Positions 10,498 through 31,860 are shown, counted from the first letter of the stretch. The stretch is DNA of 64,000 nt from Fibrobacterota bacterium (GCA_019509785.1 JAEKLQ010000032.1:11229-75228); one strand, 5' to 3'. Translations and numbers: made by a program. The notes: generated by a model not told the origin, from the sequence alone.

Positions 10498-10572
10498 CGC
10501 GCCGGCCGCTGTTGGAACCGCCCGCATGGCGCTACCTTTCCCCATGCACGATATGCCGAAGGGGCGCCTGCA

Positions 10573-11559
10573 ATGAGACGACAAGCTCCGATTCCCCTCG
10601 GTGCGGCGGCGGAATCGGATAGATCCCCGGGCCTTCCGGCATGGCCCGATGCATGGCACGTGGTGGTGCGAAGCGCGGACCTACCCCCGGGAAAAGTCCG
10701 GAGCCTTCCCCTCGCGGGACGGGAGCTGGTGGTCTTCCGTACCGCGGCCGGTTCCCTCGGCGCCTTGGATGCCCATTGCCCCCATATGGGCGCCCATCTC
10801 GGCTGCGCCGCCGTGCAAGGCGGAAGCCTGGTATGTCCGCTCCATGGCTTCGCATTGGATCCCTCCGGCGAAGTTCGCGCGCCCGGCGAACTAGGCGGCG
10901 GCTCGCGTCCAGGCACCCGCGCATATCCGGTGACGGAAGCTTTTGGCCTCGTCTTCGTCCATCCGGGCGGGGACGTTTCGCCGGCAAGACCGCCTCCGCA
11001 ACCTGCCGCGGGCATGCGATGGCTGGCCGGGAGACCGCTTCGCTTGCGCGCCGACTGGCGCCACGTGGTGGTCAATGCCTTCGACCTCCTGCATATGCGC
11101 TCGGTCCATGGCCGCGCCTTGACGGGCCCGGCCCGCATCGAGTCGAAGGACGGCGCCTTGGCCATGAGCTATGAAAGCGGGGTATTGCCGCTGTCCGGGA
11201 CGGCAGGGTATATCACGCGAAGATTGTCGCGGAACCGGATCAAGGTCATGCAAACGTGCTACGGCCCATGGCTCATGGTCGAAAGCACGGTGGGGCCCAT
11301 CCGGACTTGCGCCGTGTTCGGCCTCTTGCAGGAAGGCGAATACCTGCGGGTCTTCAATGCCTTCGGAACCGCCCGCCGCGACCCCCTGGCCCGCTGGGGG
11401 CTCCACCTCATCCGCCTCTTCTACTATGCCTTTCTCCGGAAAGACTTCGCCATCCTGGAAGGCATGCGTCTGCGGTTCGCGCATCCGGAAGACGAAGGCG
11501 TAGCTGCCATAACGGCCTATCTGGAATCCTTCCGCGACCTGGAGCCTTCCGAAGGATGA
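10573..11559 (+). CDS. Rieske non-heme-iron oxygenase (PAO/KshA-like, single-subunit type)
   Basis: The Rieske motif is CPHMGAHL...CPLHGF. The mononuclear-iron motif DLLHMRSVH (DxxHxxxxH) is present. The stop overlaps the next start (ATGA). Confidence 0.75.
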   Translation: MRRQAPIPLGAAAESDRSPGLPAWPDAWHVVVRSADLPPGKVRSLPLAGRELVVFRTAAGSLGALDAHCPHMGAHLGCAAVQGGSLVCPLHGFALDPSGEVRAPGELGGGSRPGTRAYPVTEAFGLVFVHPGGDVSPARPPPQPAAGMRWLAGRPLRLRADWRHVVVNAFDLLHMRSVHGRALTGPARIESKDGALAMSYESGVLPLSGTAGYITRRLSRNRIKVMQTCYGPWLMVESTVGPIRTCAVFGLLQEGEYLRVFNAFGTARRDPLARWGLHLIRLFYYAFLRKDFAILEGMRLRFAHPEDEGVAAITAYLESFRDLEPSEG

Positions 11560-13439
11560 TGGTCGCCCGGAGGAAGGCCGGCATGGATGGCATGGATGGT
11601 CTGCAACGGCCGGAGAAACTTAATCTCCTCCTCATATCGTCTGCCTCGGTCGCGAGCGCCGCATGCCTATGGATGGCTTCCCATGCGCGTGGGTGGATAC
11701 CGATGCTCTTGGCCGCGTGGATCTTCTCTTTCACGGCCAATACCTTGTTCTCCTTGCTCCATGAAGCGGTCCACGGATCGTTCTCCGCGCGGCGGCCGCT
11801 CAACGAATGGGCCGGCAGGGCGGCCTCGGCCTGGTTCCCGACGGGCCTTTCGGTGCAAAGGGCCTTCCACTTGACCCATCACCGGTTCAACCGGTCCCGC
11901 TTCGAGCAATTCGATGTCCTGCATCCGGGGGACAAGGTGTGGCTGAAATACGCCCAATGGTATTCCATTTATACCGGCCTCTATTGGGCCTTCGCCGTTG
12001 CCGCGGCGGCCCTGTTCACCTTGGCGCCGGGATCCCATCGTTGGCGGGTCTTGCGCGATCGTAAAGATCCCGATGCGGCGCAAACCGGATCCGCCGTCTA
12101 CGCCGAAGCCTTGGAAGGAGCGCCCCCGGTCAAGGCCCGTTCGGAAGTCTTGCTCTCCTTCGCCTTCCAGGTATTTCTCTTCTGGTCCCTGGGGCTCTCG
12201 CTCCGGGGTTGGGCCGCATGCTATGGCGCCTTCGCGTTGCAATGGAGCTGGCTGCAATACACCGATCATGCCTTTTCCCCGCTGGATGCCAAACGTGGCG
12301 CGTGGAATTTGCGCGTCGGTCCCTTAGGCAGGGCCTTCTTCCTCGACTACCACCTCCATCTCGCCCATCATCAGCATCCGCAAGCCCCGTGGAACCGCCT
12401 CCGCCACCTGATCGATGGCGCAACCCCGCGGCCTTCCTTTTTCCAAGTGTTCCGCGCGGCAATTGCGGGTCCTCGTAGGGAGGGGGAGTTCCCGGACTTC
12501 GCAGCGGCGCGTGGCCCGGGGTTCCTCGTCATCGCGGAAGCGGAAGCGATGTGCCTCGCGGACTTTTTCCGTTTCGGCCTAAGGCATGTCCGCTATTGGG
12601 GCATAGCCGCGGTGATCTTGTTGGACAGCATGCGGAGTTGGCGATCGCGGCGTGCCTTGCGTCTGGGCTTCGCCTTCCTGCAGCGGATAGATGATTTGCT
12701 CGACGGCCATCGGCCCGCGCCGCGCGAGCCCCTGCATATCGCGCGGAGCCTGGCGACGGCCCTCTGCGGAGGGGCGGGGGACGATCGGGATGCGGCCTTG
12801 ATCCGCATGGCGCGCCTCCTCGCCGCCGACTTGGGCGCGCTCGCGGGCGAGGAAGGTCCGTGCAAGCTGGCGGAAATCCTGAACGTGATGTCCTTGGATC
12901 GCCAACGGGTCATGGAGGGCGCGATTTGGGATAGCGAGGAATTGCAACGGCATTTCCGGAGCACCTTCCGTTTATCCCTGGATCTCCTGCTTATGGCGCG
13001 GGGGTCGGATCTGCGCTCCGCTGATCTGCCGGACCTGGCGGATGCGCTGGCATGGTGTTCGGTGGCCAGGGATCTGCGGGAAGACTTGCGCGGCGGCTTG
13101 ATTAATATTCCTCGCGAGGTGCTGGAGGTCGGCAGGGAGGGCCGGACCGGGCCTTTCGGAGAGACGACCGCGGATGATGCCAATGTGAAGGCGTGGCTCG
13201 CGGAAGAGCATGCCCGGGCCTCGGGCTTGTTGGATCGTCTGGAAGGGAACCTGGCGCTTCTGGATGCGCGTTGCCGGAATTCCGATCGCGGCCGGGGGCT
13301 TCTGCCGCTCAGCATGTTCACGCGATCCCTCCGGGATTTCCATCGCCGGCGTTTTCCGCGCCTGTACCGCTCTTCACGGATTCCGGCGATCGCTCCGAGC
13401 CCTGCGACCGTGCCGCAACCGGCCGCAGCCAGGGCATAG
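11556..13439 (+). CDS. fusion protein: N-terminal membrane fatty-acid-desaturase/hydroxylase-family domain + C-terminal squalene/phytoene-synthase-like (head-to-head prenyl synthase) domain
   Basis: The His boxes are HEAVHG, HLTHHRF and HLAHHQHPQAPW. The C-terminal half carries FAFLQRIDDLLD (cf. PSY RRxDDLVD) and SVARDLREDLRGGLINIPREVLE (cf. NILRDVGEDxxRGRxYLPxDEL). The start was trimmed to the ATGATG at 11556, which is coupled to the upstream stop. Confidence 0.7.
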   Translation: MMVARRKAGMDGMDGLQRPEKLNLLLISSASVASAACLWMASHARGWIPMLLAAWIFSFTANTLFSLLHEAVHGSFSARRPLNEWAGRAASAWFPTGLSVQRAFHLTHHRFNRSRFEQFDVLHPGDKVWLKYAQWYSIYTGLYWAFAVAAAALFTLAPGSHRWRVLRDRKDPDAAQTGSAVYAEALEGAPPVKARSEVLLSFAFQVFLFWSLGLSLRGWAACYGAFALQWSWLQYTDHAFSPLDAKRGAWNLRVGPLGRAFFLDYHLHLAHHQHPQAPWNRLRHLIDGATPRPSFFQVFRAAIAGPRREGEFPDFAAARGPGFLVIAEAEAMCLADFFRFGLRHVRYWGIAAVILLDSMRSWRSRRALRLGFAFLQRIDDLLDGHRPAPREPLHIARSLATALCGGAGDDRDAALIRMARLLAADLGALAGEEGPCKLAEILNVMSLDRQRVMEGAIWDSEELQRHFRSTFRLSLDLLLMARGSDLRSADLPDLADALAWCSVARDLREDLRGGLINIPREVLEVGREGRTGPFGETTADDANVKAWLAEEHARASGLLDRLEGNLALLDARCRNSDRGRGLLPLSMFTRSLRDFHRRRFPRLYRSSRIPAIAPSPATVPQPAAARA

Positions 13440-13441
13440 CG

Positions 13442-15076
13442 ATGAAGTTCCCCTACCTGGCGAATGCCGCGTGGAGCCTCGCCAGCCGCCCGGAAGCTTT
13501 GGCTTTCGAGCGTGGCCTCCGCGACGTGGAGACGGTCCAGCGGGCGCTCCTGCGGGACCTGCTGGCGCGCAACCGTGACAGCGGATACGGAAAGGAGCAC
13601 GGCTTTTCCACCCTCGTCCATGCCGAGGCCTATCGCGACCGGGTACCCGTGGCGGATTATGACGACATGGAACCCTGGATCCGCCGGGCCGCCCGGGGCG
13701 AGAAGGCCCTGACGGCGGAGAGCGTTCTGGTGCTCGAACCGACCGGGGGCAGCCAGGGCGGCAGCAAATGGATCCCCTATACCGCATCGCTCCGCAAGGA
13801 ATTCCGGCGGGGCCTGGCCCCCTGGATCCATAGCATGTTCCGTCGTTTCCCGGCGGCGATGCGCGGCACCGCCTATTGGTCGCTTTCGCCGCCCCTGCAA
13901 CGCGAACCGGGCTTCGAGTATTCGGTAAAGGCCGGCTTCGAAAGCGATGCGGATTACCTGGGGCCCCTCGGGCGCATCCTGGAAAGCCAAGCCTTCGCCG
14001 CGCCGTCCTCGGTGCTGCGGGAAAGGAACGCCGATGCCTTTTTCCATCTCACCGCATCGCACCTGTTGGCGTCGGAGGATCTGGCTCTCATTTCGGTGTG
14101 GAACCCTACCTTTCTCGCCTTGCTGCTCGACCGCATCCGCGCGGATCGGGAAAGCCTGCTGCGCGGCCTCCGCGACGGCGGGAGGGGCGCCCGCGCCCGG
14201 ACGGTCGCAAGGGCATTGGACGGGAGCGAGGACAGGGCCTGGATCGGAATATGGCCCCGCCTCGCCTTGATCAGCTGTTGGCGGGACGGCTGGGCCGCGG
14301 GCCCTGCGGATCGTTTGGCGGAATTTTTCCCCGGAGTCGCCTTCCAGGCCAAAGGCCTCCTGGCCACCGAAGCCCTGGTTTCCTTGCCCTGGCATGTTCC
14401 AGAAACGCTATCGGAAAACGGGAAGGAAGACGGGAGGGAAGACGGGACGTATGGCGCGCCCCTTCACCTTCTCAATTATCGCGGGCACTTTTTCGAATTC
14501 CTCGACGTCGAATCCGGTAAGACCCGTTTCGCCTGGGAGACCAAGGCTGGGGGCGTCTACTCGGTGCTGGTCACGACCGGCGGCGGGCTATACCGGTACC
14601 GGCTGCGCGATCTCGTGCGTATCGAAGGTTTCCGCTCCGCCTGCCCGGCGGTGCGTTTCTTGTCGAAGGAAGAGTCGTTCTCGGATCTGACGGGAGAGAA
14701 ATTGCAATCGGATTTCGTTCAGCATTGCGCGGAGCAGGCGTTAGCCGAGGCCGGGATCGGCACGGTCTTCTATCTGCTGGCGCCGGAGCCGGATGCGACG
14801 CCGCCCCGCTACGCCTTGCACGTCGGGCTGGAAGGGGATTCGCGGGCCAGCGCCCTGGAGGCCCGCCTGGAAGCGGCCTTGGAAGGGAACTTCCAATACG
14901 GCCTTAGCCGCAAGCTCGGGCAATTGGCACCAGTCCGAGTGGTGCCCGCCGGTCCCGGCGCGGAAAGTCGATATTACTACTATAAGGGCTTACGCGCGAA
15001 GTTGGGGGATATCAAGTGGAAGCCGTTGGAAAGCTCAGGCCCCTGGGCGGACATCCTGCGATCGAAACATCCATGA
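13442..15076 (+). CDS. GH3-family acyl-acid amido synthetase-like adenylating enzyme
   Basis: The motifs VQRALLRDLLARNRDSGYGKEHGF, VPVADYDDMEPWIRRAARGE and VLVLEPTGGSQGGSKWIPYT match GH3 (PF03321) signatures. The ATG at 13442 is 2 nt after the upstream TAG. Confidence 0.7.
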   Translation: MKFPYLANAAWSLASRPEALAFERGLRDVETVQRALLRDLLARNRDSGYGKEHGFSTLVHAEAYRDRVPVADYDDMEPWIRRAARGEKALTAESVLVLEPTGGSQGGSKWIPYTASLRKEFRRGLAPWIHSMFRRFPAAMRGTAYWSLSPPLQREPGFEYSVKAGFESDADYLGPLGRILESQAFAAPSSVLRERNADAFFHLTASHLLASEDLALISVWNPTFLALLLDRIRADRESLLRGLRDGGRGARARTVARALDGSEDRAWIGIWPRLALISCWRDGWAAGPADRLAEFFPGVAFQAKGLLATEALVSLPWHVPETLSENGKEDGREDGTYGAPLHLLNYRGHFFEFLDVESGKTRFAWETKAGGVYSVLVTTGGGLYRYRLRDLVRIEGFRSACPAVRFLSKEESFSDLTGEKLQSDFVQHCAEQALAEAGIGTVFYLLAPEPDATPPRYALHVGLEGDSRASALEARLEAALEGNFQYGLSRKLGQLAPVRVVPAGPGAESRYYYYKGLRAKLGDIKWKPLESSGPWADILRSKHP

Positions 15077-16083
15077 TACCCCTGCCTACCATGGCCACCG
15101 CGCCGACGGCCCAGGAAAAGATCCGCGGCATCCGCGAGGATCTTGCCTTCGGATGCGAAGCCCGCCTTCGGGATCTGCATGCCCTGGACGCGCGCCTGCA
15201 CGCGCGCTACGCCCTCTTCCCGGCCTTGCTCGCGGCGGGACTTCTGCTTTCCGCATCGGCCCTGCGCGGGCTGGAGATCGCGTGGCCGCGCTACGCCGCC
15301 GGCGTTCTGCTCGCCGCTCTGGGGATGAACAGCTGCTTTCTCCTTATCCATGAGGCCGTACACGGGATCCTGTTCCGGAACCCGGCCTGGAACCGGCTGG
15401 CGGGCGTCCTGCTTGCGGTCTGCGGCGGCATGGCCTTCAGCGCTTACCGTTTCCTCCACCTCCGCCACCATGAATTCCTGGGCGATCCCAGGGACCCCGA
15501 TGACTACGCCAACTATTCGCGCAGCCCGCGCCTCGTCTGGCTCATGCATTTCGTCCGCTTGGGGCTAGGCACGGTCCTCTACGTCTTCGCCATCCCCGTG
15601 GTTTCCCTGCGCCATGCCCCCGCGGCCGATCGCCGCGCCATCCTCGCGGAATACGCCTTGCTCTCGATCCTCATCCCCGCCGTGCTGTGCCTGGTTTCCC
15701 CCGGCAAGATCCTGGCCGTCTGGGGCGCGCCCTTCCTCCTGGCGAATTGGATGATCAATATCCGGGGCTTCTCCCAGCACGGCATCGCCGAGGCTTCCGA
15801 TCCGTGGCTAGCCAGCCGGTCCACCGTTCCGCATCCCCTGGTGCGGTTCTTCCTCATCAACGAGAACTTCCACCTGGAGCATCATCTTTTCCCCGGCGTA
15901 CCCGGCTATCGCCTCGCGGAATTGCACGTCCTGTTGCGCCCGCATATCCCGCGCCGCTTGCTCTGCCGTTCCTACGCGTCCTTCCTGGCCGCCTTCCTGC
16001 GGCAAGCGCCCCGCATGGACGAACATCCCATCGGCCTTACCTTCCAATCGGTCCAGGGACGCGATGGAGGAAGGTGCCTATGA
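15073..16083 (+). CDS. membrane fatty-acid desaturase family protein
   Basis: The three His boxes are HEAVHG, HLRHHEF and HLEHHLFP. The start overlaps the upstream stop (ATGA). Confidence 0.75.
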   Translation: MIPLPTMATAPTAQEKIRGIREDLAFGCEARLRDLHALDARLHARYALFPALLAAGLLLSASALRGLEIAWPRYAAGVLLAALGMNSCFLLIHEAVHGILFRNPAWNRLAGVLLAVCGGMAFSAYRFLHLRHHEFLGDPRDPDDYANYSRSPRLVWLMHFVRLGLGTVLYVFAIPVVSLRHAPAADRRAILAEYALLSILIPAVLCLVSPGKILAVWGAPFLLANWMINIRGFSQHGIAEASDPWLASRSTVPHPLVRFFLINENFHLEHHLFPGVPGYRLAELHVLLRPHIPRRLLCRSYASFLAAFLRQAPRMDEHPIGLTFQSVQGRDGGRCL

Positions 16084-17420
16084 TGGCCGGCAAGATCCGC
16101 ATCGCCTTGCTCTCCCCCAAAGGCCCGCTGTACAAGCACAAGACCGGCATCTTCCGCAAGTCCCTGCGGGTGGCGCCCTTGACCTTGACTACCTTGGCTG
16201 CGCTGATCCCGGAAGACGTACCCGCCGAGTTACGCCTGATCGACGAAGGCGTGGACGATATCCCCCTGGATCTGGATGCCGACCTGGTGGGGATGACCGT
16301 CATCACCGGATCCTCCACGCGCGCCTACGAACTCTCCGCACATTTCCGCTCCCGCGGCATCAAGGTGGTGCTGGGCGGTCCCCACGTGACCCTGGTGCCG
16401 GACGAGGCTTCCCGGCACGCCGACAGCATCGTCACCGGCTATGCCGAAGAGACCTGGCCCGAACTGCTGCGGGATTTCAAGCGCGGGAAAATGCGGCCGC
16501 GCTATTCCCAGTCCCCGTCCTTCTCCCTGGCCACCCCAGGCAACCATCCGTTTCCGCATCGGCATCTCCTGCCCAAGTCCATGTACAAGACCCGCAACAC
16601 CTTCGAGGCCACCCGGGGTTGCATCCATGCCTGCGAGTTCTGCGTGGTGCCCACGGCCTGGGGCCGCAAGCCTTTCCACAAGCCCGTGGGCCAAGTGGTA
16701 GAGGATATCCGCCGCACCGGCGCGAAGCACCTCGTTTTTTACGACCTCAACCTCATCGCCGATCCCGAGTACGCCAAGGAACTGTTCCGGGCCCTGATTC
16801 CGCTCAAGGTGCAATGGTTCGGGCTCTCCACCACCTTCGTCAACCGGGATCCGGAGCTGCTGGATCTGACGGCGAAAAGCGGATGCATGGGCTTGCTGGT
16901 GGGCTTCGAGAGCGTGAGCCGCGCTTCCCTGGCGGCGGTCAAGAAGGGCTTCAACAAGCCGGACGACTATCCTGGCTTCATCCGCGAATTGCACGGGCGG
17001 GGCATCGCCCTCATGGGCACCTTCGTATTCGGCTCCGACGGGGATACGCCGGACAGCTTCGCCGAGGTGGTGGACTTCGTGCAGGAGCATAAGATCGACC
17101 TGCCGCGTTATAGCGTTATGACCCCTTTTCCTGGTACACCGTTGCATACGCGCCTGGAAGCGTCGGGCCGCATCCTCACCAAGGATTGGAGCCAATACGA
17201 CGGCCAGCACGTGGTGTTCCAACCCAAGCAAATGACCGCCAAGCGATTGCAAGAAGGCCATGAATGGGCCTGGAAGCGAACTTACAGCCTCAAGCACGTG
17301 GCGGGTCGCATGCTGCGCATCATGCCCCATTGGCCCCTCATCCTCACGGCCAATTTCGGCTATCGGTTCTACGCCCACAACCTGGGCCGCTTCTATACTT
17401 GCCAAGGCGGGCTGGTATGA
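16080..17420 (+). CDS. cobalamin(B12)-binding radical SAM protein (class B rSAM)
   Basis: There is an N-terminal B12-binding-like domain (VGMTVITGSSTRAYELSAHFRSRGIKVVLGGPH). The rSAM cluster is TRGCIHACEFC (CxxxCxxC). The ATGATG start is coupled to the upstream TGA. Confidence 0.8.
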   Translation: MMAGKIRIALLSPKGPLYKHKTGIFRKSLRVAPLTLTTLAALIPEDVPAELRLIDEGVDDIPLDLDADLVGMTVITGSSTRAYELSAHFRSRGIKVVLGGPHVTLVPDEASRHADSIVTGYAEETWPELLRDFKRGKMRPRYSQSPSFSLATPGNHPFPHRHLLPKSMYKTRNTFEATRGCIHACEFCVVPTAWGRKPFHKPVGQVVEDIRRTGAKHLVFYDLNLIADPEYAKELFRALIPLKVQWFGLSTTFVNRDPELLDLTAKSGCMGLLVGFESVSRASLAAVKKGFNKPDDYPGFIRELHGRGIALMGTFVFGSDGDTPDSFAEVVDFVQEHKIDLPRYSVMTPFPGTPLHTRLEASGRILTKDWSQYDGQHVVFQPKQMTAKRLQEGHEWAWKRTYSLKHVAGRMLRIMPHWPLILTANFGYRFYAHNLGRFYTCQGGLV

Positions 17421-18838
17421 ACAAGATCCGCCTTACCATCGTCCACCCGTGCATCGGCCGCAAGCCCGGGGTGGAGTATATCCGCTCTTGGCAGATGGAG
17501 CCCCTGCCCGCGGCCTATCTGGCGGCCCTGGCGGCGCCGTACGCGGACATCTCGTTCCATGACGATCGTATGGAAGCGATCCCTTACGACGAGCCCGCGG
17601 ACCTGGTGGCTATCAGCGTGGAGACTTATACCGCCAAACGGGCCTACCAGATCGCCACCGAGTATCGCAAACGCGGCGTGCCAGTGGTGATGGGCGGCTT
17701 CCATGCCACCCTCATCCCCGAAGAGGTGATGGAATACGCCGAGGCCATCGTGATCGGCGAAGGCGAGCAGCTTTTCCCCAGGCTCCTGGAAGACTTCCGG
17801 GCAGGCCGGATGAAACGCGTGTATCGCGCCGAAGGGAGATCCGAGATCGGATCCATCCGTCCCGACCGTTCCATCTTCGCGGGCAAACGATATCTCAAGA
17901 TCGGGCTGGTGGAGGCGGCCCGGGGTTGCCATTTCAAGTGCGACTTCTGCGCCATCACCACCTACTTCGGCGCCACCCAGAGCCGCCGCCCCATCGACAA
18001 CGTGATCGCGGAGATCCGATCCATCAAGGACGGCCGCAAGCTCTTCTTCTTCGTGGACGACAACATCGTCTCGCATCCCAAGTGGGCCAAGGAGTTCTAC
18101 CGGGCCCTCATCCCCCTGAAGATCCGCTGGGTAAGCCAGGCCACCCTGACCATGGCCCAGGACAACGAGTTGATGGATCTGATGAAGCGGAGCGGCTGCC
18201 AAGGCGTGCTCATCGGCTTCGAGACCCTGGACCCTGCGAACCTGAAGGCCATGAACAAGCGCTTCAACGAAGTGAAAGGCGGCTTCCCCGCCGTCATCTC
18301 CAAGCTGAACCGCCACGGGCTCCGCCTCTACGCCACCTTCATCTTCGGCTACGACGCCGACACGCCCGAAAGCTTCGCGCGCACCGTGGCCTTCTGCAAG
18401 GAGCAGAACATCTTCATGGTCGCCTTCAACCATATCACCCCTTTTCCTGGTACGCAGTTGTACAAGCGCCTGGAAAAGGAAGGCCGGCTTCTCTACGGCA
18501 AGTGGTGGCTGGACGACCGCTACCAATACGGACAGGTGCCATTCAAGACCGTCCTGCCGCCGGAACTGATCCAGGAAGAATGCGTCAAGGCCCGCAAGAG
18601 CTTCTACAGCCTCGGCTCCATCCTGAAGCGCCTCCGCAACCGGGCCAATACCGGCAGCCTGTTCATGTTGCGCTCCTATTTCTTCATCAACTTCCTCCTG
18701 GGCAAGGAAGCCTCCCAGCGGGAGAACTATCCCTTGGGAGATGCCTCCTGGCGCGGGACCATCCTCAAGGCGGACGAGGACAGCCTGCGGCGCGCGGGCG
18801 TGATTCCTGAGATTCCCGCCATGCAGGCCGCGGAATGA
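17417..18838 (+). CDS. cobalamin(B12)-binding radical SAM protein (paralog of previous)
   Basis: The rSAM cluster is ARGCHFKCDFC. The architecture is the same as the upstream gene at about 45% visible identity. The overlap is ATGA. Confidence 0.8.
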   Translation: MNKIRLTIVHPCIGRKPGVEYIRSWQMEPLPAAYLAALAAPYADISFHDDRMEAIPYDEPADLVAISVETYTAKRAYQIATEYRKRGVPVVMGGFHATLIPEEVMEYAEAIVIGEGEQLFPRLLEDFRAGRMKRVYRAEGRSEIGSIRPDRSIFAGKRYLKIGLVEAARGCHFKCDFCAITTYFGATQSRRPIDNVIAEIRSIKDGRKLFFFVDDNIVSHPKWAKEFYRALIPLKIRWVSQATLTMAQDNELMDLMKRSGCQGVLIGFETLDPANLKAMNKRFNEVKGGFPAVISKLNRHGLRLYATFIFGYDADTPESFARTVAFCKEQNIFMVAFNHITPFPGTQLYKRLEKEGRLLYGKWWLDDRYQYGQVPFKTVLPPELIQEECVKARKSFYSLGSILKRLRNRANTGSLFMLRSYFFINFLLGKEASQRENYPLGDASWRGTILKADEDSLRRAGVIPEIPAMQAAE

Positions 18839-19977
18839 AACAGGTAGGAAAGGCCATCGACTCCGTTCCGGTCCTCGACCTCCACACCGTACGGGAAGCC
18901 GTTCCCGGGGACGACGCTTCCATCCGCGCCTTGTTGCGGCGTTCCCCCATGCCCGGGGATATCCGCATGGCCTTTACCCGGGAGCCCTCTTTCTTCGCGA
19001 GCCTCGAGGTTGAGGGGAAGGCGGGCCGGGCCGCCGTCGCCGAGGCCCTGGACGGCGCTATACGGGGGCTTATCGTGCGCAACGAGAAGGAAGCCTGGGT
19101 GAACGGAAACCCCATGCCCCTAGGCTACCTGAGCGGCCTACGCGTGGAGCCGATCCCGGATCGGGTGGTCGTCCTCCGGCGAGGCGCCGATTTCATCCGG
19201 CGCTGCCATGGGGAAGGCCGCGCGCGCATCTATCTCCAGACCGTCACCGAAGGGAATCGCAAGGCCGCGGCCCTGCTCTCCGCCGGGCGCCTCGGCATGC
19301 CCCGCCTCAAGGATCTGGGCGGCCTGCATACCTTCCTGCTGTCCCCTTCCGTATCACGCAAGTTACCGAACCTTCTCGGTTACGAAGTGCGGGCCGCCTC
19401 CCGGAACGATATCCCGGAGGTGATCGCTTTCCTTGGGGGCGAAGGGGCCCGCCAATTCTTCCCTTGCTACCGACCGGAGGATTTCGGCCCCCGGGGCGGA
19501 CTTCTCAAGGGCCTTTCCGCCGGCGACGTGCTCCTTCTGACCCGGGACGGCAGGCTGGCAGGAACTTTAGGCCTTTGGGACCAGGAGCCCTGCAAGCAAA
19601 GTTTCATCGCCGGCTACGGCCCCGCTCTCAATCGCATGCGGCCCTTCTATAATCTGCTGGCCCGCTTCCGGTCCCGTCCCGGCCTGCCCGCGGCCGGCGC
19701 AACCGTGCGGCATCTCAAGGCCGCCTTGCTCCGGATCGAGGGGGATGATGCCGGAGCTTTCGCCGTCCTCCTGAAGCATGCGTTGTGGAAGGCGCGCGAA
19801 CGGTCTTTGCCCTTGGCCATCATGGTCCACGAGCGCGATCCCTTCCTGCCCGTCCTGCGCGCCTTGCCTTCGGTGGCCTATGCCAGCCGCCTCTTCGCGG
19901 CTTATTTCGAGGATGGCCGGGAACTGGCGGAATCCCTGGACGGCCTCGTGCCGTACGTGGAATTGGGGGCGCTTTAG
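18835..19977 (+). CDS. hypothetical protein, possibly tandem acyl-CoA N-acyltransferase (GNAT/FemAB-like) fold
   Basis: It is a 380-aa ORF with strong codon bias, coupled to the upstream gene (ATGA). It matches no family confidently, so the fold is a guess from the composition pattern. Confidence 0.4.
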   Translation: MKQVGKAIDSVPVLDLHTVREAVPGDDASIRALLRRSPMPGDIRMAFTREPSFFASLEVEGKAGRAAVAEALDGAIRGLIVRNEKEAWVNGNPMPLGYLSGLRVEPIPDRVVVLRRGADFIRRCHGEGRARIYLQTVTEGNRKAAALLSAGRLGMPRLKDLGGLHTFLLSPSVSRKLPNLLGYEVRAASRNDIPEVIAFLGGEGARQFFPCYRPEDFGPRGGLLKGLSAGDVLLLTRDGRLAGTLGLWDQEPCKQSFIAGYGPALNRMRPFYNLLARFRSRPGLPAAGATVRHLKAALLRIEGDDAGAFAVLLKHALWKARERSLPLAIMVHERDPFLPVLRALPSVAYASRLFAAYFEDGRELAESLDGLVPYVELGAL

Positions 19978-19978
19978 C

Positions 19979-20722
19979 ATGGCTCTCCGCGGCGAAACCG
20001 TCCCGGTGGAACAACTCCAGACCGAGGAAATCCGGCGCATGTTCCTGCTCCTGGACCGGCACTACGCCAACGCCAGTTGGGAAGGATTCCGGGAGGACCT
20101 GGCGGAGAAGACCTGGGTGATCCTCCTCAAGGACGGGGATGAGTTGGCCGGATTCTCCACCCAGCTTCTGATGGAGACGCGCTTCGAGGGAGAACTACTT
20201 TCCGTGGTCTTTTCCGGCGATACCATCATCGATCCCGCCCACTGGGGATCGCCGGAGCTGCAAACCAGCTTCGCGGCCCTATTGGATCGCCTCCACCGGG
20301 GGAGGCCGGATCGCAGGCTGTTCTGGTTCCTCATCTCCAAGGGCTTCCGTACCTATCGCATCCTGCCCATCTATTTCCTGGACTTCCACCCTCGCCATGA
20401 CGTCCCCGTTCCGCCCTGGCACCGCCGCTTGCTCGATCACCTGGCGCAGACGAAGTTCCCGGCAGCCTATCGGCCCGAGCGGGGCATCTTGGATTTCAAC
20501 GGGCATTCCCAATACCTGCGCCCGCCGCTGAGCGTCATCCCGGAAGCGCGCATCATGGCCAATCCCCATATCCGTTTCTTCGCCGAGGCCAACCCGGGAT
20601 GGGCCCGGGGCGACGAATTGGCCTGCTTGGCGGAATACGCCCCGCATAATCTCACGCCGTACCTGAGGCGGCGTCTGCCTTCCATGCGCCGGAACCAGCC
20701 GGCCGCGCTTCAGGAAGGATAA
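19979..20722 (+). CDS. hypothetical GNAT-like N-acyltransferase
   Basis: WVILLKDGDELAGFST...LLSVVFSGDTIIDPAHWG resembles a GNAT beta-strand plus acyl-CoA-binding region. The ATG lies 2 nt after the upstream TAG. Confidence 0.4.
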   Translation: MALRGETVPVEQLQTEEIRRMFLLLDRHYANASWEGFREDLAEKTWVILLKDGDELAGFSTQLLMETRFEGELLSVVFSGDTIIDPAHWGSPELQTSFAALLDRLHRGRPDRRLFWFLISKGFRTYRILPIYFLDFHPRHDVPVPPWHRRLLDHLAQTKFPAAYRPERGILDFNGHSQYLRPPLSVIPEARIMANPHIRFFAEANPGWARGDELACLAEYAPHNLTPYLRRRLPSMRRNQPAALQEG

Positions 20723-21822
20723 CGGAATGCGGAAAAGAATCGTTCCCACCGCCCGGCTACCAAGGCTTTGACCCGGGATTCCAAAGGATGCAGATCATTC
20801 GTCCGGTAGGATTTTACGGTAGCCAGGTAGCCCTCCAGGAACGGGCCGGCCGCGCCGAAGGGCCCGTACCCCAAGGCCCCGTACATCCGCTCCAGCTCGC
20901 GCAAGGGATCGGCCGCCAGATCCTCGTAGCGCATCTCATGCAGCCGCCCCGGCGGGATCAGGTTCCGGTCCGCCAGATAGGCGTCGTTCACGGTCTCGTA
21001 CCGTTGCAGGATGTCCTCGTCCACTTCGGCGGGATCCGGGCTCTGGAGGTACATGTAGGGGAACAGGGTCGCGATGGTATGCCGCGAGCTCTTGAACACG
21101 GCGTAGGGGTCCCGCACGATATGCACGAAACGGGCATCGGGAAAGAGCTCCAGCAGAAGCGGGATGCGGGCCGTATGGGCCGGGGACTTGAACGCCAGGG
21201 TCCTGGCCCCATGGCGCCAAGCCAGCTTGCGGGCGAAGCGGCCGAAGGCGTCCTGCCATTCCTTCGCGGCGCCGGCCTCGGCCTCCTTGAAGGTGAGGTA
21301 ACGCGCATAATACCTCCGGTTCGCGGGGAAGCTCACCCCGCAGTAGGGGGAGCGGCCGGTCATCAGGGCCATGGCGAACTCGTCCTCCGCGGGGGAGCCG
21401 GCGGAAAGGGCCATGCCGTCCATCGGACGGGTCTTGGGGATGAAGAACCTCAGGATGGGAGCCAACCATCCTTCCGTGAGGAGGAAGGTTTCCGGGCTCA
21501 TGACTTGGAGCGTGTTGGGGCAGGCGAAGCGGTCCCGGTCCGATGCCAAGAGGTATTGCAGATGGGTCGTGCCCGCGCGCCAATGGCCCAAGACGAAAAG
21601 GGGCGGCTTCGGGGCCGGAGTCGATGCCACCTTAGCAGCGTACAACCCGCGCTCCACGCGGGAGACCAAGCTGTTAACGAGGGCGGCCGAGGTTACCGCC
21701 GCGGCGCGGTGCCAGTAACGCGGCTCCACCTTCCATCGGTTCTCCTTGAGCAGCCGCAACCACGCGCGGAAACCTATCCCGTACAAGTAATTATTCGCGA
21801 GACTTATCTTTCTGCTATCCAC
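20710..21822 (-). CDS. PAPS-dependent sulfotransferase family protein
   Basis: The 5'-PSB loop is LGHWRAGTTHLQYLL, followed by a later RDP motif (HIVRDPYAVFKS). The start is GTG at 21820-21822. Confidence 0.7.
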   Translation of the reverse strand: MDSRKISLANNYLYGIGFRAWLRLLKENRWKVEPRYWHRAAAVTSAALVNSLVSRVERGLYAAKVASTPAPKPPLFVLGHWRAGTTHLQYLLASDRDRFACPNTLQVMSPETFLLTEGWLAPILRFFIPKTRPMDGMALSAGSPAEDEFAMALMTGRSPYCGVSFPANRRYYARYLTFKEAEAGAAKEWQDAFGRFARKLAWRHGARTLAFKSPAHTARIPLLLELFPDARFVHIVRDPYAVFKSSRHTIATLFPYMYLQSPDPAEVDEDILQRYETVNDAYLADRNLIPPGRLHEMRYEDLAADPLRELERMYGALGYGPFGAAGPFLEGYLATVKSYRTNDLHPLESRVKALVAGRWERFFSAFRYPS

Positions 21823-21857
21823 CAGCGCCTTCCAACTTGATCCGTAAGGGAATATCC

Positions 21858-22658
21858 ATGAAGAAACTCCTGCTTCCAGCCGTCCTTCTTTGCCTCGCGG
21901 CTTTCACCGGCTGCAAGGACTACCATTATGTAAAAGTCGCCCAGGTGTTGCCCGTGGGCAAAACGTCCGGTCTCACGCCGGATGAACGGCAGGCGGACTC
22001 GCTGATGAAAGCGCTGGTCTCCAACCAGGCGGCCGTGGATCGCTTCCAGAAGATGTTCAAGTGCGCGGTCCTCGAGATCATCGATTTCGACAGTCTCACC
22101 TTCACGGTAAAGATAAACGCGGATTCCGCCGGCGCCGGTCACGCCAAGGCGGAATATTCCCTGGGAACGGATCCGGCCGCCAAGCCCGATCTGGTCTTGC
22201 CTATTTACCGCAAGAACCTGTCCAACCTCCTCCAGATCTTCGCCGACAATACCGTATCCGATGAAGAGGCGTACCGCATCCACCGGGCCGTCTTCGGATC
22301 TTCCCTGAGGTCCCTCTTCCAAGTGCCCGCCCTGTACGATCCGAAGATCGCCAAGCATCTGGCGCTGCCCAACTTCATCCAGATGACCCTGAAGAACGAG
22401 GGGAATTATGAATTCATGGGATCCAAGAAAGAAGCCGTGGTGACCATCGTCAACGTGGACGGCCAGTGGCTGGTGACGCAGGGCGCCTACGGCGATCCGG
22501 AAGTGAAGTGGGCCGTTACCCCCAAGCAGTTGGCGGATTTCACCCGCCTGGTATTCGAGCCCGGCAAGGGCGCCGCCACCTCCATGAGCGCCGCCCGGGC
22601 CCGCCTCAAGGAGATCAAGGCCTTCATTGACGGCATCACGGTTTATCGTCGGGGCTGA
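21858..22658 (+). CDS. lipoprotein of unknown function
   Basis: The signal peptide MKKLLLPAVLLCLAAFTGC carries a lipobox. AAGGGA lies before the ATG. Confidence 0.6.
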   Translation: MKKLLLPAVLLCLAAFTGCKDYHYVKVAQVLPVGKTSGLTPDERQADSLMKALVSNQAAVDRFQKMFKCAVLEIIDFDSLTFTVKINADSAGAGHAKAEYSLGTDPAAKPDLVLPIYRKNLSNLLQIFADNTVSDEEAYRIHRAVFGSSLRSLFQVPALYDPKIAKHLALPNFIQMTLKNEGNYEFMGSKKEAVVTIVNVDGQWLVTQGAYGDPEVKWAVTPKQLADFTRLVFEPGKGAATSMSAARARLKEIKAFIDGITVYRRG

Positions 22659-22664
22659 TGTCCG

Positions 22665-23351
22665 TTGGCCGAATTCCTCGTATACCTGAACCGGGTCGTC
22701 TGGTCCCTGGCCGGTTTCCCGGTCATGGCCTGGCTGTGGTACCGGCACGGCGGGGCCAGTGTTCCCTTGGCCGCCATCGTGCTCGGCATCCCGCTGGTCT
22801 TCGGCTATCTCATACCCGGATTGGCCATCCTGTGGCTGCGCCTCTGGGAGATCAACTCCAGGTTTTCCTATAAAGGCATCCAGATCCACCAAGGCTTCAT
22901 CTATGCCTCGGGCCTGTCCCTGGACGCTTACGCCGCCCACCATGTGCGCTTCGCCTCCCCCTGGGCCACCGTGATCGTGTCTTGCCTGCTCACGGGGTGC
23001 ATCGTCGGCTTCACGGGATGGTTCATCGATATCGCCGGGGTCAAGGCGGGCCGTATCCGCATCGATAATCCCCCCGCCCGGGCGGGCCGCGACCCGGCCA
23101 CCATCGTGACCTATTACGCTCCCGCGTGCTATTTCACCCTGGGCTTCTGCTACATGTTGGCGGTCCATTTGGTTTGGGCCTTCCTGGGCCCGGCCGCCCC
23201 GGGACTACCGGGTAACCTTCGAGATACGGTAACTCCCGGGTCACCATCGGCCTTTGCCATAGCCGCGTTGTACGCCGCAGGCTTTCTCCTCACCGCCGCT
23301 CCCGCCGGCGCGCTCTACCTTTACCTGCAAAAGAAGGGCCGGTCGGTTTGA
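22665..23351 (+). CDS. integral membrane protein of unknown function
   Basis: It has five to six hydrophobic helices. The start codon is TTG. Confidence 0.45.
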   Translation: MAEFLVYLNRVVWSLAGFPVMAWLWYRHGGASVPLAAIVLGIPLVFGYLIPGLAILWLRLWEINSRFSYKGIQIHQGFIYASGLSLDAYAAHHVRFASPWATVIVSCLLTGCIVGFTGWFIDIAGVKAGRIRIDNPPARAGRDPATIVTYYAPACYFTLGFCYMLAVHLVWAFLGPAAPGLPGNLRDTVTPGSPSAFAIAALYAAGFLLTAAPAGALYLYLQKKGRSV

Positions 23352-23389
23352 CGCCGGCATCCACAGGATTCGCGTCCTCCTTAGGCTTC

Positions 23390-24715
23390 ATGCTCGATCC
23401 CCTGGGGCGGGGCGCAGGCTTACGGCGTCGCGGCCGCCTGGTCCGCCTGGCCAAGGCCACCGGAGGCATGATCCTGGTTTTCGATCCCGCCGACGTGGAC
23501 GAGCTCCTATCCCGTCCGGATACGTTCGCCCGCTGGGAACGGGACACCGCCCCCGTCCGTTTCCCCACGGACTCGGCCTCTTCGCGCCTCATCTCGGGCC
23601 TACTGGCCATGCAGAACGGCGCTAAGCATCGGGAATTGCGGAGGCAGCTCGCTCCGGCCTTCGATCATAGTCGCCTTAAACATTACTTCGCGCTTTCACG
23701 TTCCGGCATCGCCGCTTTCGTGGAACGCCTTGAGGCATCGGGAACGGTCCAGGATCTCAACGGGATCTGCCATGCCCTGGCGATGAACACCGCCTTGCTC
23801 ACCTTGTTCGGCGCGTATCCGGGCGAGGAGTCCCGCGCCTTAGCCGATGACTTCCGCGCTTGGATGAACGCGGCCTTCTCGCCTTGGACCTTGCTGCTCC
23901 GCTTCGATGCGCCGGGCACTTCCTTTGGCCGTTTCCTAAGGCACGGCGAAAGCCTGGAAAAGCGCTTGATCGCGCTCTTTTGCAACCGCCCGGAAGCCCA
24001 AGGGGCCTTGGTCCAGGTGGTATTCGGGCCCGATTGGGACCGGCAGGTCACCGAGGCGGAGTTGGTCAGCCGCGCCGCGGGCTATTTCCAAGCCAGCTAT
24101 GAAACTACGGCCAATACCCTGGTCTGGACTTTGATCCTGCTGAACCTCCATCCCGAAGCGGCCCGCGCATCGAGGGAGGAAATCCGCGCCGTGATCGGCG
24201 AAGGCGAAATCGAATATGCGCATCTCCAGGCCCTGCCGTACCTACGCGCCGCGGTGCTGGAGAGCATGCGCCTGTTGCCGCCGGTTCTGCTTTTCCCCCG
24301 CATCGCGGTGCAGGAGCTCGCCTTGGGCGGCGTGGAAATCCCGAAGGGCGCCCGGCTCGCGTACGGACCGGCCTTGACACATCGCCTTCCGGACGTATTC
24401 GAGGATCCCTTGGCCTTCAGGCCCGAGCGGTTCCTGGGACCGGGCCCCCGCCCGGAGGGCTTCCTGTCCTTCGGGGGCGGGCCGCGCCGATGCCCCGGGG
24501 AGCAATTCGCTTTGAACGAAGTGCTGCTGATCCTGGCCGCTTGGCTGAGGCGGGGCTTTCCCCGCATCGAGACAGGCACTCATGTGAAATGCCATGGCTT
24601 GGTGGCCCATACTCCGGTCCGACCCGTGCCCTTCCGCAACATCCCCTGGTCCGAAGTTCCGGGGAAGCCTCCGCGTTTGCAAGGCAAGGTCTTCGCCGGG
24701 ATCAAGCATGCTTAA
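23390..24715 (+). CDS. cytochrome P450
   Basis: The heme-binding loop is FGGGPRRCPGEQFA (FxxGxRxCxG). The EXXR motif is LESMRLLPP. The start was trimmed to the ATG at 23390. Confidence 0.8.
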   Translation: MLDPLGRGAGLRRRGRLVRLAKATGGMILVFDPADVDELLSRPDTFARWERDTAPVRFPTDSASSRLISGLLAMQNGAKHRELRRQLAPAFDHSRLKHYFALSRSGIAAFVERLEASGTVQDLNGICHALAMNTALLTLFGAYPGEESRALADDFRAWMNAAFSPWTLLLRFDAPGTSFGRFLRHGESLEKRLIALFCNRPEAQGALVQVVFGPDWDRQVTEAELVSRAAGYFQASYETTANTLVWTLILLNLHPEAARASREEIRAVIGEGEIEYAHLQALPYLRAAVLESMRLLPPVLLFPRIAVQELALGGVEIPKGARLAYGPALTHRLPDVFEDPLAFRPERFLGPGPRPEGFLSFGGGPRRCPGEQFALNEVLLILAAWLRRGFPRIETGTHVKCHGLVAHTPVRPVPFRNIPWSEVPGKPPRLQGKVFAGIKHA

Positions 24716-25583
24716 GCCGCCCGGCCTTCTCTTCCTTGGCTTCGCGGCTGCCCTTCTGGCGGCCCTGCACGCCGGCGCCTTCGCCGCATTCTTCCATTTC
24801 GAAGCCGGGTTCTTCCTGGCCGCATTGCTCCTATGGCAGGCCACCGGCATACTGGGCGTCTCCGTCGGTTACCATCGCTTACTTAACCACCGCAGCTTCG
24901 AGTGCCCGCGTCCTATCAAATGGGTCTTGCTGTTCCTGGCCGGACTGGCGGGCCAATTGGGTCCCATCCGCTGGGTGCGCGTGCACCGTTTCCACCATGC
25001 CCACAGCGATACGGATCTGGATCCGCATACGCCCCGCCGCGGTTTCTGGTTCGCGCATCTGGCCTGGCTGTTCCAGGCAGGCCGCCGCGGGAATGAACCG
25101 GCGCTTCAGGAGCCTCCGGCCGATCTACTGGCCGATCCGGACTGCCGCTTTTTCGAACGGGCCTATCCCTTCCTGTTCTACGGCTCGCTCGCCGCCATCG
25201 GGTGGGGGTGGGGTTGGGCCGGCTTCCTCTGGCTCGGGACCTTCCGCTTGGCGGTTACCTTGCATAGCATCCTGAGCATCAACTCGGTCGGGCACGTCTT
25301 CGGCCGACGCGATTTCGACCTGCCGGACGACAGCCGGAACCTCCGCCTCTGGGCCGCCTTCACCGGCGGCGAAGCGCTCCACAACAACCACCATGCCCAT
25401 CCCCGCAGCGCCCGCTTCGCCTGCCGCCCCTGGGAACCGGACGCCGGATGGTTGGCCATCCGATCCCTGGCCGCCTTAGGACTGGCCTGGAACGTCCGCT
25501 ATTACGATCCCGTTACCGGCAGCCTGGCCATCCTCCGCCCCCGACCGCAATCGATCCCGCTTCCCTCGCCGGCCGGAACCTAA
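24708..25583 (+). CDS. acyl-CoA (delta-9-type) fatty acid desaturase
   Basis: The motifs HRLLNHRSF, HRFHHAHSDTDLDPH and NNHHAHP are present. The gene overlaps the P450 gene by 8 nt. Confidence 0.8.
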   Translation: MLKPPGLLFLGFAAALLAALHAGAFAAFFHFEAGFFLAALLLWQATGILGVSVGYHRLLNHRSFECPRPIKWVLLFLAGLAGQLGPIRWVRVHRFHHAHSDTDLDPHTPRRGFWFAHLAWLFQAGRRGNEPALQEPPADLLADPDCRFFERAYPFLFYGSLAAIGWGWGWAGFLWLGTFRLAVTLHSILSINSVGHVFGRRDFDLPDDSRNLRLWAAFTGGEALHNNHHAHPRSARFACRPWEPDAGWLAIRSLAALGLAWNVRYYDPVTGSLAILRPRPQSIPLPSPAGT

Positions 25584-31482: not shown

Positions 31483-31860
31483 AGGAACTCCTTTGGTGGG
31501 CGGACGGATCTCCTGTCGGGGCTGGAACGCGAATCTCCCTTGCAGCGGGAATTTTTTTCGGTCCGGCCGCGCTAGGGGAATAAAATTTTTTATGGTCGCG
31601 CGCGCTACGGCCCGGTTTTCCCGCGCTCTTCGCCTGTCTAGAGCGGGCGCTTGCGGAATGCGACACCCCAGGCCCGCCGCGCGTCCAAGCAAGAATGGCC
31701 CCGGGGTATCTTGCGTGTTACCATGGCGGGGGAATCCCGGACTCCCCATTCGCGATCCGTTTTCCGTCCTTCCTGCGAGGACTCCGGGCCATCCGGCTTC
31801 GAATTCCGGCCTTTTAATGTGGCTTAGCTCACAGATCCGCAAGTTTGGGCCAACCAGCAA

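Follow-up and report, generated by a model that had tools for sequence, protein, structure and literature searches.

Two B12-domain radical SAM paralogs in a conserved five-gene cassette with GH3 and GNAT-fold partners, a candidate lipid-tailoring pathway

Radical S-adenosylmethionine (SAM) enzymes that depend on cobalamin perform some of the hardest C–H functionalisations in biology, and few of those known act on lipids. The lipid-acting set in a 2026 review, which covers work to 2025, comprises Tes, Mss, Gms, GrsA/B, Gmm, Cds, HpnH/J/P/R, Jaw5 and the ladderane candidates. Within this set, HpnP and HpnR methylate hopanoids at C-2 and C-3, Gmm is a glycerol monoalkyl glycerol tetraether (GMGT) methylase, and GrsA and GrsB are the ring synthases of glycerol dialkyl glycerol tetraethers (GDGT). 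Here, we describe two adjacent genes of this kind, rSAM-A and rSAM-B, in a 64,000-nucleotide stretch of DNA from a Fibrobacterota bacterium (JAEKLQ010000032.1:11229-75228, hereafter the window). Their products share with HpnP/HpnR, Gmm, GrsA/GrsB and HpnJ the combination of a B12-type Rossmann domain and a single CxxxCxxC motif without an auxiliary cluster motif. Moreover, GrsA/B and HpnP/R are paralog sets that act on one hydrophobic scaffold and, like the present pair, are encoded among lipid-tailoring genes. The hopanoid and tetraether loci are unlike the present one in two respects: rSAM-A and rSAM-B are joined to a GH3 amido synthetase gene and two GNAT-fold genes, and they form orthogroups of their own that stay below the curated family cutoffs. 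The pair defines two new, very strongly conserved orthogroups (A and B) that are tied to GH3 and two GNATs in at least hundreds of species and also on plasmids. The enzymes are of a known kind, class B radical SAM proteins, and occur in a gene combination that we did not find described, neither in full-text literature searches nor in three reviews on lipid radical SAM or B12 radical SAM enzymes.

The original prediction for this region placed two adjacent B12-domain radical SAM genes at positions 16080-18838, and two plus-strand open reading frames (ORFs) are located exactly there (Table 1). Both products exceed the Pfam gathering cutoffs for an N-terminal B12-binding domain (PF02310; 39.4 bits for rSAM-A and 45.7 bits for rSAM-B, cutoff 32.1) and for Radical_SAM (PF04055; 45 and 53.8 bits, cutoff 29.5). 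For DUF4070, rSAM-B scores 26.8 bits and rSAM-A, with 20.8 bits, remains slightly under the cutoff of 22. The two cluster motifs quoted in the prediction are present, TRGCIHACEFC at residues 178-188 of rSAM-A and ARGCHFKCDFC at residues 168-178 of rSAM-B, and their cysteines (181/185/188 and 171/175/178, respectively) are conserved to 98-100%. A GG-x-H loop is conserved as well (VVLGGPH in rSAM-A, VVMGGFH in rSAM-B), as is an R..YPLGD motif in the C-terminal part of rSAM-B. The proteins share 38% identity over 363 residues (E 5e-85), in agreement with the proposed paralogy. An SD-like (Shine–Dalgarno-like) GGAGGA precedes the rSAM-A start, and the rSAM-A/rSAM-B junction is an ATGA stop/start overlap. 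It belongs to a run of four consecutive ATGA overlaps (GH3 to desaturase, desaturase to rSAM-A, rSAM-A to rSAM-B, rSAM-B to tandem GNAT). The description of the pair as lying inside a lipid cluster was fair wording, given the three membrane FA_desaturase genes of the region, one of them directly upstream of rSAM-A.

As judged from their architecture, an N-terminal B12 Rossmann domain followed by a single CxxxCxxC motif, both proteins are class B radical SAM enzymes. The domain match further suggests that they bind cobalamin, with the reservation that no sequence motif separates cobalamin binders from non-binders. Beyond the CxxxCxxC motif, fully conserved cysteines were observed at C269 and C441 of rSAM-A and at C261 and C389 of rSAM-B, and C12 of rSAM-B is conserved to 91%. 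As these extra cysteines are scattered and no auxiliary Fe–S motif was found in the conservation map of the two proteins, A and B are unlikely to contain an auxiliary Fe–S cluster of the kind present in Tes/Mss or SPASM enzymes. In C–C coupling of the Tes/Mss/Gms type, by comparison, an auxiliary [4Fe–4S] cluster holds the first substrate radical (PMC13459092); the corresponding motif is absent in A and B.

The genomic context of the pair was followed through 55 independent loci with enough flanking sequence (well-flanked loci) and a species scan with one genome per GTDB species. In Leptospira, a Bacillaceae metagenome-assembled genome (MAG) and another MAG, the same order was found: rSAM-A, rSAM-B, a gene for a protein of ~375 amino acids (aa), a gene for a ~240-aa protein, and GH3. 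In the lineage of the window, GH3 has moved to a place upstream of the rSAM pair. The complete set of five was found in 44 of the 55 well-flanked loci; taken singly, rSAM-A orthologs occur in 49 (54-62% identity), the 375-aa gene in 53, the 240-aa gene in 50, and GH3 in 46. The species scan returned rSAM-B relatives in at least 589 species-level genomes, from Acidobacteriota, Verrucomicrobiota, Gemmatimonadota, Chloroflexota, Myxococcota, Planctomycetota, Spirochaetota, Bdellovibrionota and other phyla. Homologs of rSAM-B with 55-68% identity are found in Leptospira, Bacillaceae, Elusimicrobiota, Bacteroidia, Chloroflexota and others, and overall the A and B orthogroups are 55-67% identical over more than 12 phyla; they are the most conserved part of the cassette. 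Clustering of the 140 radical SAM ORFs of the loci separated A from B, with a mean identity of 65% within A and 67% within B against 35% between them. As A and B are separate orthogroups across the loci, their duplication is ancient rather than local. The two are retained together, and the pair in the window very likely represents the A/B core of this cassette.

Some lineages hold four or five radical SAM paralogs. Two further orthogroups, C and D, show ~45% identity to B and were recovered in 6-7 loci; insertions of C or D into the cassette were observed in L008, L028, L041, L046, L068, L071, L073, L074 and L082. The Bacillaceae locus L005 has a SPASM-domain radical SAM gene between A and B, and L032 carries two divergent A-like copies. 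Solitary rSAM-B orthologs (60-64% identity) occur in L012 and L030, next to RHS repeat, adenylate cyclase and MazG/TP_methylase genes that give no functional hint; no cassette partner was found within 10 kb, and the partners may be encoded elsewhere in those genomes. A MAG labelled as a Thermoplasmatota archaeon (L081) contains bacterial-type rSAM-A and rSAM-B with 57-59% identity, owing either to contamination during binning or to transfer between domains.

The partner genes of the pair bear on the nature of the scaffold. The GH3 protein carries the Pfam domains GH3, GH3_M and GH3_C and matches plant GH3 amido synthetases in the PDB by sequence (E 1e-16). Three nucleotide-binding motifs are kept in 61 cassette GH3s (pT.Gs....K.IP.T, KGLlaTE and TTgGGL.RYrl.D). 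The two other partners, of 380 aa and 247 aa in the window, returned no Pfam or NCBIfam match, and PDB profile searches gave non-significant GNAT hints only. The three remaining cassette proteins, in turn, reach no curated NCBIfam family. AlphaFold2 models of the two partners, computed from input alignments of database homologs, were confident, with a predicted local distance difference test (pLDDT) score of 92.9 (380 aa) and 94.4 (247 aa). Foldseek searches against the PDB with the 380-aa model retrieved MAB_4324, N-myristoyltransferase and glucosamine N-acetyltransferase (E ~1e-11, template modelling score 0.55-0.67), and those with the 247-aa model AAC(2')-Ia and Eis-type GNATs (E 4e-6, probability 1.0). 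According to these models, the 380-aa protein is a tandem GNAT and the 247-aa protein a GNAT with a C-terminal extension. The 247-aa family is large, with 2419 clusters at 50% identity, 914 of them at E <= 1e-30. Natural fusions of the 247-aa protein with GH3 (726-788 aa) were detected in at least three representatives, the database proteins P0367, P0408 and P0412, and in P0446 the GNAT-like protein is fused to an N-terminal JmjC/Cupin_8 oxygenase domain. The combination of GH3 with two GNAT partners suggests that the scaffold is an N-acylated amine or amino acid and not a plain fatty acid or a polycyclic triterpenoid.

The only characterised bacterial GH3 enzyme, OlsH, uses ATP to join a fatty acid to ornithine, giving N-acyl-ornithine (PMC12493201). 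The planctomycete OlsH/OlsI ornithine-lipid pathway resembles the cassette in that the gene of a GH3 adenylating synthetase with conserved motifs shares an operon with those of acyl-transfer and tailoring enzymes (PMC12493201). It differs in the partners, an OlsI alpha/beta-hydrolase and an OlsG N-methyltransferase there as compared to GNAT-fold proteins and B12 radical SAM enzymes here; an alpha/beta-hydrolase that could serve as an OlsI-type partner was not found in the window cluster. The hydroxylase-type genes near some cassettes are presumably analogous to OlsE and OlsC.

To place the pair among characterised families, NCBIfam hidden Markov model (HMM) scores were used as a proxy for a phylogeny with HpnP, HpnR, BchE, TsrM and Fom3. 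Neither protein reached the curated cutoff of any family. The top match of rSAM-A was the ring-contracting HpnJ (TIGR03471; 83.2 bits for rSAM-A and 89.4 bits for rSAM-B, cutoff 577.6), accompanied by the P-methylase PhpK (72 and 91 bits, cutoff 600), the ladderane-associated lipid B12/radical SAM model TIGR04072 (67.8 and 90 bits, cutoff 360) and the cyclase BchE (TIGR02026; 67.9 and 83 bits, cutoff 481). The model for hopanoid C-3 methylation, HpnR (TIGR04367), scored 37.7 and 62 bits (cutoff 650), and the HpnP model was absent among the NCBIfam matches listed for the two proteins. The analogy to HpnP/HpnR and BchQ/R methylases, on which the original prediction drew, thus found no support. 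By this proxy, rSAM-A and rSAM-B group neither with BchE-type cyclases or peptide-modifying radical SAM enzymes, the grouping named as speaking against lipid methylation, nor with lipid methylases. Sequence matches in the PDB (rSAM-A sequence and rSAM-B profile) comprised AprD4 (6FD2), QCMT (9CCB), CysS, TsrM and TokK, with E-values of 1e-12 or weaker; they cover the radical SAM core only, and the N-terminal domains are left unaligned. QCMT is a cobalamin-dependent C-methylase. As the matches mix a cobalamin-independent dehydratase with methylases, a function cannot be transferred from them. The pair appears to fall in no characterised clade, methylating or not, and the placement is neutral as to chemistry. 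Ladderane biosynthesis offers a further point of comparison: TIGR04072, one of the top weak matches, likewise denotes a B12-domain radical SAM protein in a lipid cluster with desaturase-type genes. In contrast to that system, anammox-type fatty acid synthase genes are absent here, and the host range of the cassette is broad and includes Leptospira and Citrobacter.

We propose the following pathway. GH3 would activate a carboxylic acid by adenylation, with a fatty acid, the type of substrate used by OlsH, as the most plausible choice, and couple it to an amine or amino acid through an amide bond. Further acyl groups from acyl-coenzyme A (acyl-CoA) or acyl-acyl carrier protein (acyl-ACP) may be added by the two GNAT-fold proteins, giving an N-acyl amino-acid-type (amino)lipid. 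Each with one [4Fe–4S] cluster and its cobalamin-type domain, rSAM-A and rSAM-B would act sequentially at two different unactivated carbons of this scaffold, most likely by methyl transfer via methylcobalamin. In some lineages, extra radical SAM paralogs (C, D and A-like) could act at additional positions; lineage-specific decorations may come from membrane diiron oxygenases, Rieske protein, cytochrome P450, PAP2 and sulfotransferase. The order of these steps is presumed. We put the probability of the combined model, an N-acyl amino-acid-type lipid built by GH3 and the GNATs and tailored by A and B, at roughly 40%. Regarding its parts, we lean slightly towards a lipidic product; the lipid-type accessories that recur near the cassette (FA_desaturase, PAP2, FA_hydroxylase and an alpha/beta-hydrolase-like gene) were counted in its favour. 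That both rSAM-A and rSAM-B methylate is an even bet. C-methylation is ranked as the most likely chemistry because methylases make up most of the characterised cobalamin-dependent radical SAM enzymes and typically occur in position-specific sets of paralogs (PMC13459092, PMC12931638). It is a plausible expectation for the enzyme class, by analogy rather than by placement. The earlier reading of the pair as lipid C-methylases is accordingly retained in part: class B architecture, paralogy and the desaturase-rich surroundings speak for it, and the likeness to hopanoid or bacteriochlorophyll methylases had to be given up.

Several observations weigh against the model. The cassette core contains no lipid-synthesis genes (ketosynthase, ACP or acyl-ACP enzymes), and GH3 scores 42.2 bits against the OlsH model NF052613 over an N-terminal stretch only, at a cutoff of 620. 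As for the co-occurrence of desaturases, which had been suggested as a check, a ~350-aa FA_desaturase lies near the cassette in 24 of the 55 well-flanked loci, and desaturases are missing from more than half of them and stand outside the conserved core. In addition, some members of the FA_desaturase family use free amino acids as substrates, one example being the arginine hydroxylase GntB. The best PDB sequence match, AprD4, does not bind cobalamin despite a related domain, and no curated methylase family was matched, the best weak matches including the non-methylating HpnJ and BchE. Moreover, the product has been seen nowhere so far.

With regard to chemistry, the sequence data do not separate methylation from non-methylating reactions of the GrsA/B, HpnJ or BchE kind. 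On the same cassette and scaffold, A and B may instead catalyse a cyclisation, a C–C cross-link, a ring contraction or a rearrangement, cobalamin serving to handle radicals or electrons. We regard this as rather unlikely, albeit as the strongest competitor to methylation. It draws on the top NCBIfam scores, with HpnJ first and BchE near, which are all far under the family cutoffs, and on the precedent of GrsA/GrsB, a B12-domain paralog pair that acts sequentially on one lipid, does not methylate and, like A/B, lacks auxiliary clusters (PMC13459092). The desaturase coupled directly to rSAM-A could provide olefins for a radical cyclisation, as has been proposed for ladderanes; the position of desaturases outside the conserved core and the majority of methylases among characterised class B enzymes argue against this reading. 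A role as methylases of hopanoids, sterols or bacteriochlorophyll, like HpnP/HpnR/BchQ/R, would agree with the class B architecture, and the weak SQS_PSY-like domain fused to a neighbouring desaturase in the window lineage could be read in the same direction. Given the low HpnR scores, the absence of the HpnP model among the matches listed and the lack of this fusion in 80 related loci, we attach next to no weight to this assignment. A search for the corresponding context was negative too, as squalene-hopene cyclase (shc), other hopanoid (hpn), sterol and bacteriochlorophyll (bch) genes are absent in Pfam scans of ~40 window ORFs.

As to the product, a soluble small molecule is an unlikely option: a signal, an osmolyte or a siderophore-like amide of an amino acid or polyamine, in which A and B modify the amino-acid part and the desaturase-like proteins are GntB-type hydroxylases of free substrates. 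GH3 enzymes classically join small acids to amino acids, GntB is the best NCBIfam match of the coupled desaturase Des336, some genomes have associated AurF-like and JmjC/cupin oxygenases, and the structural neighbours of the GNATs include aminoglycoside and glucosamine N-acetyltransferases. In line with solubility, predicted membrane segments are absent from the core cassette proteins. A lipid is favoured, on the other hand, by PAP2, FA_desaturase and FA_hydroxylase as recurrent neighbours, by the N-myristoyltransferase-like fold of the tandem GNAT and by the use of fatty acids by OlsH, and no exporter is conserved with the cassette. Maturation of a ribosomally synthesised and post-translationally modified peptide (RiPP), as by PoyB/C or the bottromycin methyltransferases, is highly improbable. 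RiPP clusters frequently encode B12 radical SAM enzymes, and weak NCBIfam matches to ApyD and RiPP C-methyltransferase models were obtained; their scores are very low (19-62 bits), and neither a protease, nor a RiPP recognition element (RRE), nor a transporter is conserved with the cassette. A search of 66 loci for a precursor peptide gene likewise found no conserved small ORF up to 1.5 kb from the cassette, whose genes directly adjoin one another. Scans of the window for a cobalamin riboswitch or other Rfam RNA element returned no match.

The cassette also occurs in compact form on a plasmid. Citrobacter portucalensis plasmid NZ_CP134684.1 (51417-63512; positions 10361-22456 of locus L089), a mobilizable IncFIB/IncFII plasmid of a gull isolate, carries an island of 11 genes that is flanked by unrelated genes. 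Their order is GNAT with extension, GH3, A, B, tandem GNAT, C, D, PAP2, a SnoaL-like gene, an A-like fifth radical SAM gene and a desaturase. The island thus consists of cassette-associated gene types only and encodes five B12 radical SAM paralogs; its tandem-GNAT homolog is annotated as an N-acetyltransferase. A megablast search of complete E. coli genomes with the island gave no match. In Leptospira meyeri, the cassette copies reside on ~74-kb contigs, one of which is annotated as plasmid-borne, and further copies were found in Leptospira biflexa. As the cassette is carried on the Citrobacter plasmid island and on a plasmid-annotated L. meyeri contig, we consider it mobile. The Citrobacter IncF island and the L. 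biflexa and L. meyeri copies offer tractable hosts, with the Citrobacter island as a natural, compact test system. Once identified, the product would extend bacterial aminolipid or natural-product biosynthesis by a new branch and place B12 radical SAM chemistry in a new reaction context. In its widest form, which we consider doubtful, the proposal is that of a widespread mobile pathway to a new class of bacterial aminolipids, C-methylated or radically cyclised by dedicated paralogs at two to five defined carbons of the hydrocarbon part or the head group. If true, some orphan lipid biomarkers with branched or cyclic structures could originate from the cassette, given its frequent occurrence in Acidobacteriota, Verrucomicrobiota, Gemmatimonadota and Chloroflexota of soil and freshwater.

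Table 1. Features of the window (positions counted from its first nucleotide; indented entries are parts of the feature above)
Feature	Position	Strand	Remarks
770-aa protein	8185-10497	+	Heads the plus-strand gene string
Rieske [2Fe–2S] protein	10573-11559	+	Pfam Rieske, 58.6 bits
Accessory desaturase fused to SQS_PSY-like domain	11583-13439	+	N-terminal ~300 aa of the type found in 24/55 loci
 Desaturase His boxes	11760-11777, 11868-11882, 12357-12377		
 SQS_PSY-like C-terminal domain	12483-13439		Pfam E 4.4e-4, under gathering score
 Asp-rich motif DDLLD	12690-12704		
 Asp-rich motif DLRED	13071-13085		
GH3 acyl-acid amido synthetase (adenylating, amide-forming)	13442-15076	+	Core gene
Des336, membrane FA_desaturase-family diiron enzyme	15073-16083	+	Pfam 126.9 bits; ATGA-coupled to GH3 and rSAM-A
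rSAM-A	16080-17420	+	446 aa; B12-binding, radical SAM (CIHACEFC), DUF4070-like C-terminus; orthogroup A
 TRGCIHACEFC	16611-16643		
rSAM-B	17417-18838	+	473 aa; B12-binding, radical SAM (CHFKCDFC), DUF4070; orthogroup B
 ARGCHFKCDFC	17918-17950		
Tandem-repeat GNAT-fold protein	18835-19977	+	380 aa; N-myristoyltransferase/MAB_4324-like fold (model); core gene
GNAT-fold N-terminal half with ~100-aa C-terminal extension	19979-20722	+	247 aa (model); core gene
Sulfotransferase	20710-21822	-	Pfam
Lipoprotein-like protein	21858-22658	+	Window lineage block
4-TM (four-transmembrane-segment) protein	22665-23351	+	Hydrophobic segments
Cytochrome P450	23390-24715	+	Pfam
Acyl-CoA-type desaturase, membrane FA_desaturase	24708-25583	+	Pfam
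ASH/Cep192-D4/HYDIN-type Ig-like domain protein	28774-31860	-	Large
ASH/Cep192-D4/HYDIN-type Ig-like domain protein	32517-33938	-	Large

Accessory genes were surveyed by clustering the neighbour genes of 84 sources and by comparing those of the window with 80 related loci. Apart from the desaturases, the recurring types were PAP2 membrane phosphatases/transferases (19 of the 84 sources), SnoaL-like proteins with a transmembrane anchor (16), thioesterase-like (Palm_thioest-like) alpha/beta-hydrolases (15) and AurF-like diiron proteins (8); an FA_hydroxylase is encoded in the closest relative of the window locus (L088). Besides its best match GntB, Des336, an additional desaturase of the window lineage, shows weak NCBIfam matches to CrtR, CrtW and DesA/B, and its orthologs adjoin the cassette in L010, L054 and L073. 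The fusion of the desaturase at 11583-13439 to a divergent squalene/phytoene-synthase-like (SQS_PSY-like) domain is specific to the window lineage, the desaturase of the related loci being ~350 aa long. Homologs of the Rieske protein were found in 20 loci (18 of the 55 well-flanked ones), and the protein is likely an oxygenase or the electron-transfer partner of the desaturase. Its public gene call (L001, 3598-4143) comprises 181 aa only; as the Rieske domain occupies residues 28-103 of the 328-aa ORF, the longer start is likely.

Downstream of the cassette, the block at 20710-25583 is mostly missing from the related loci, and its adjacency suggests that it may belong to the pathway. Sulfotransferase and P450 would then suggest a hydroxylated or sulfated derivative in the window organism. 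The 770-aa protein at the upstream end shows three hydrophobic segments in its C-terminal part and has a tail rich in Pro; it returned neither a Pfam or NCBIfam match nor a homolog in the related loci. Further downstream, the two large Ig-like domain proteins are of a type unusual in bacteria and appear unrelated to the cassette.

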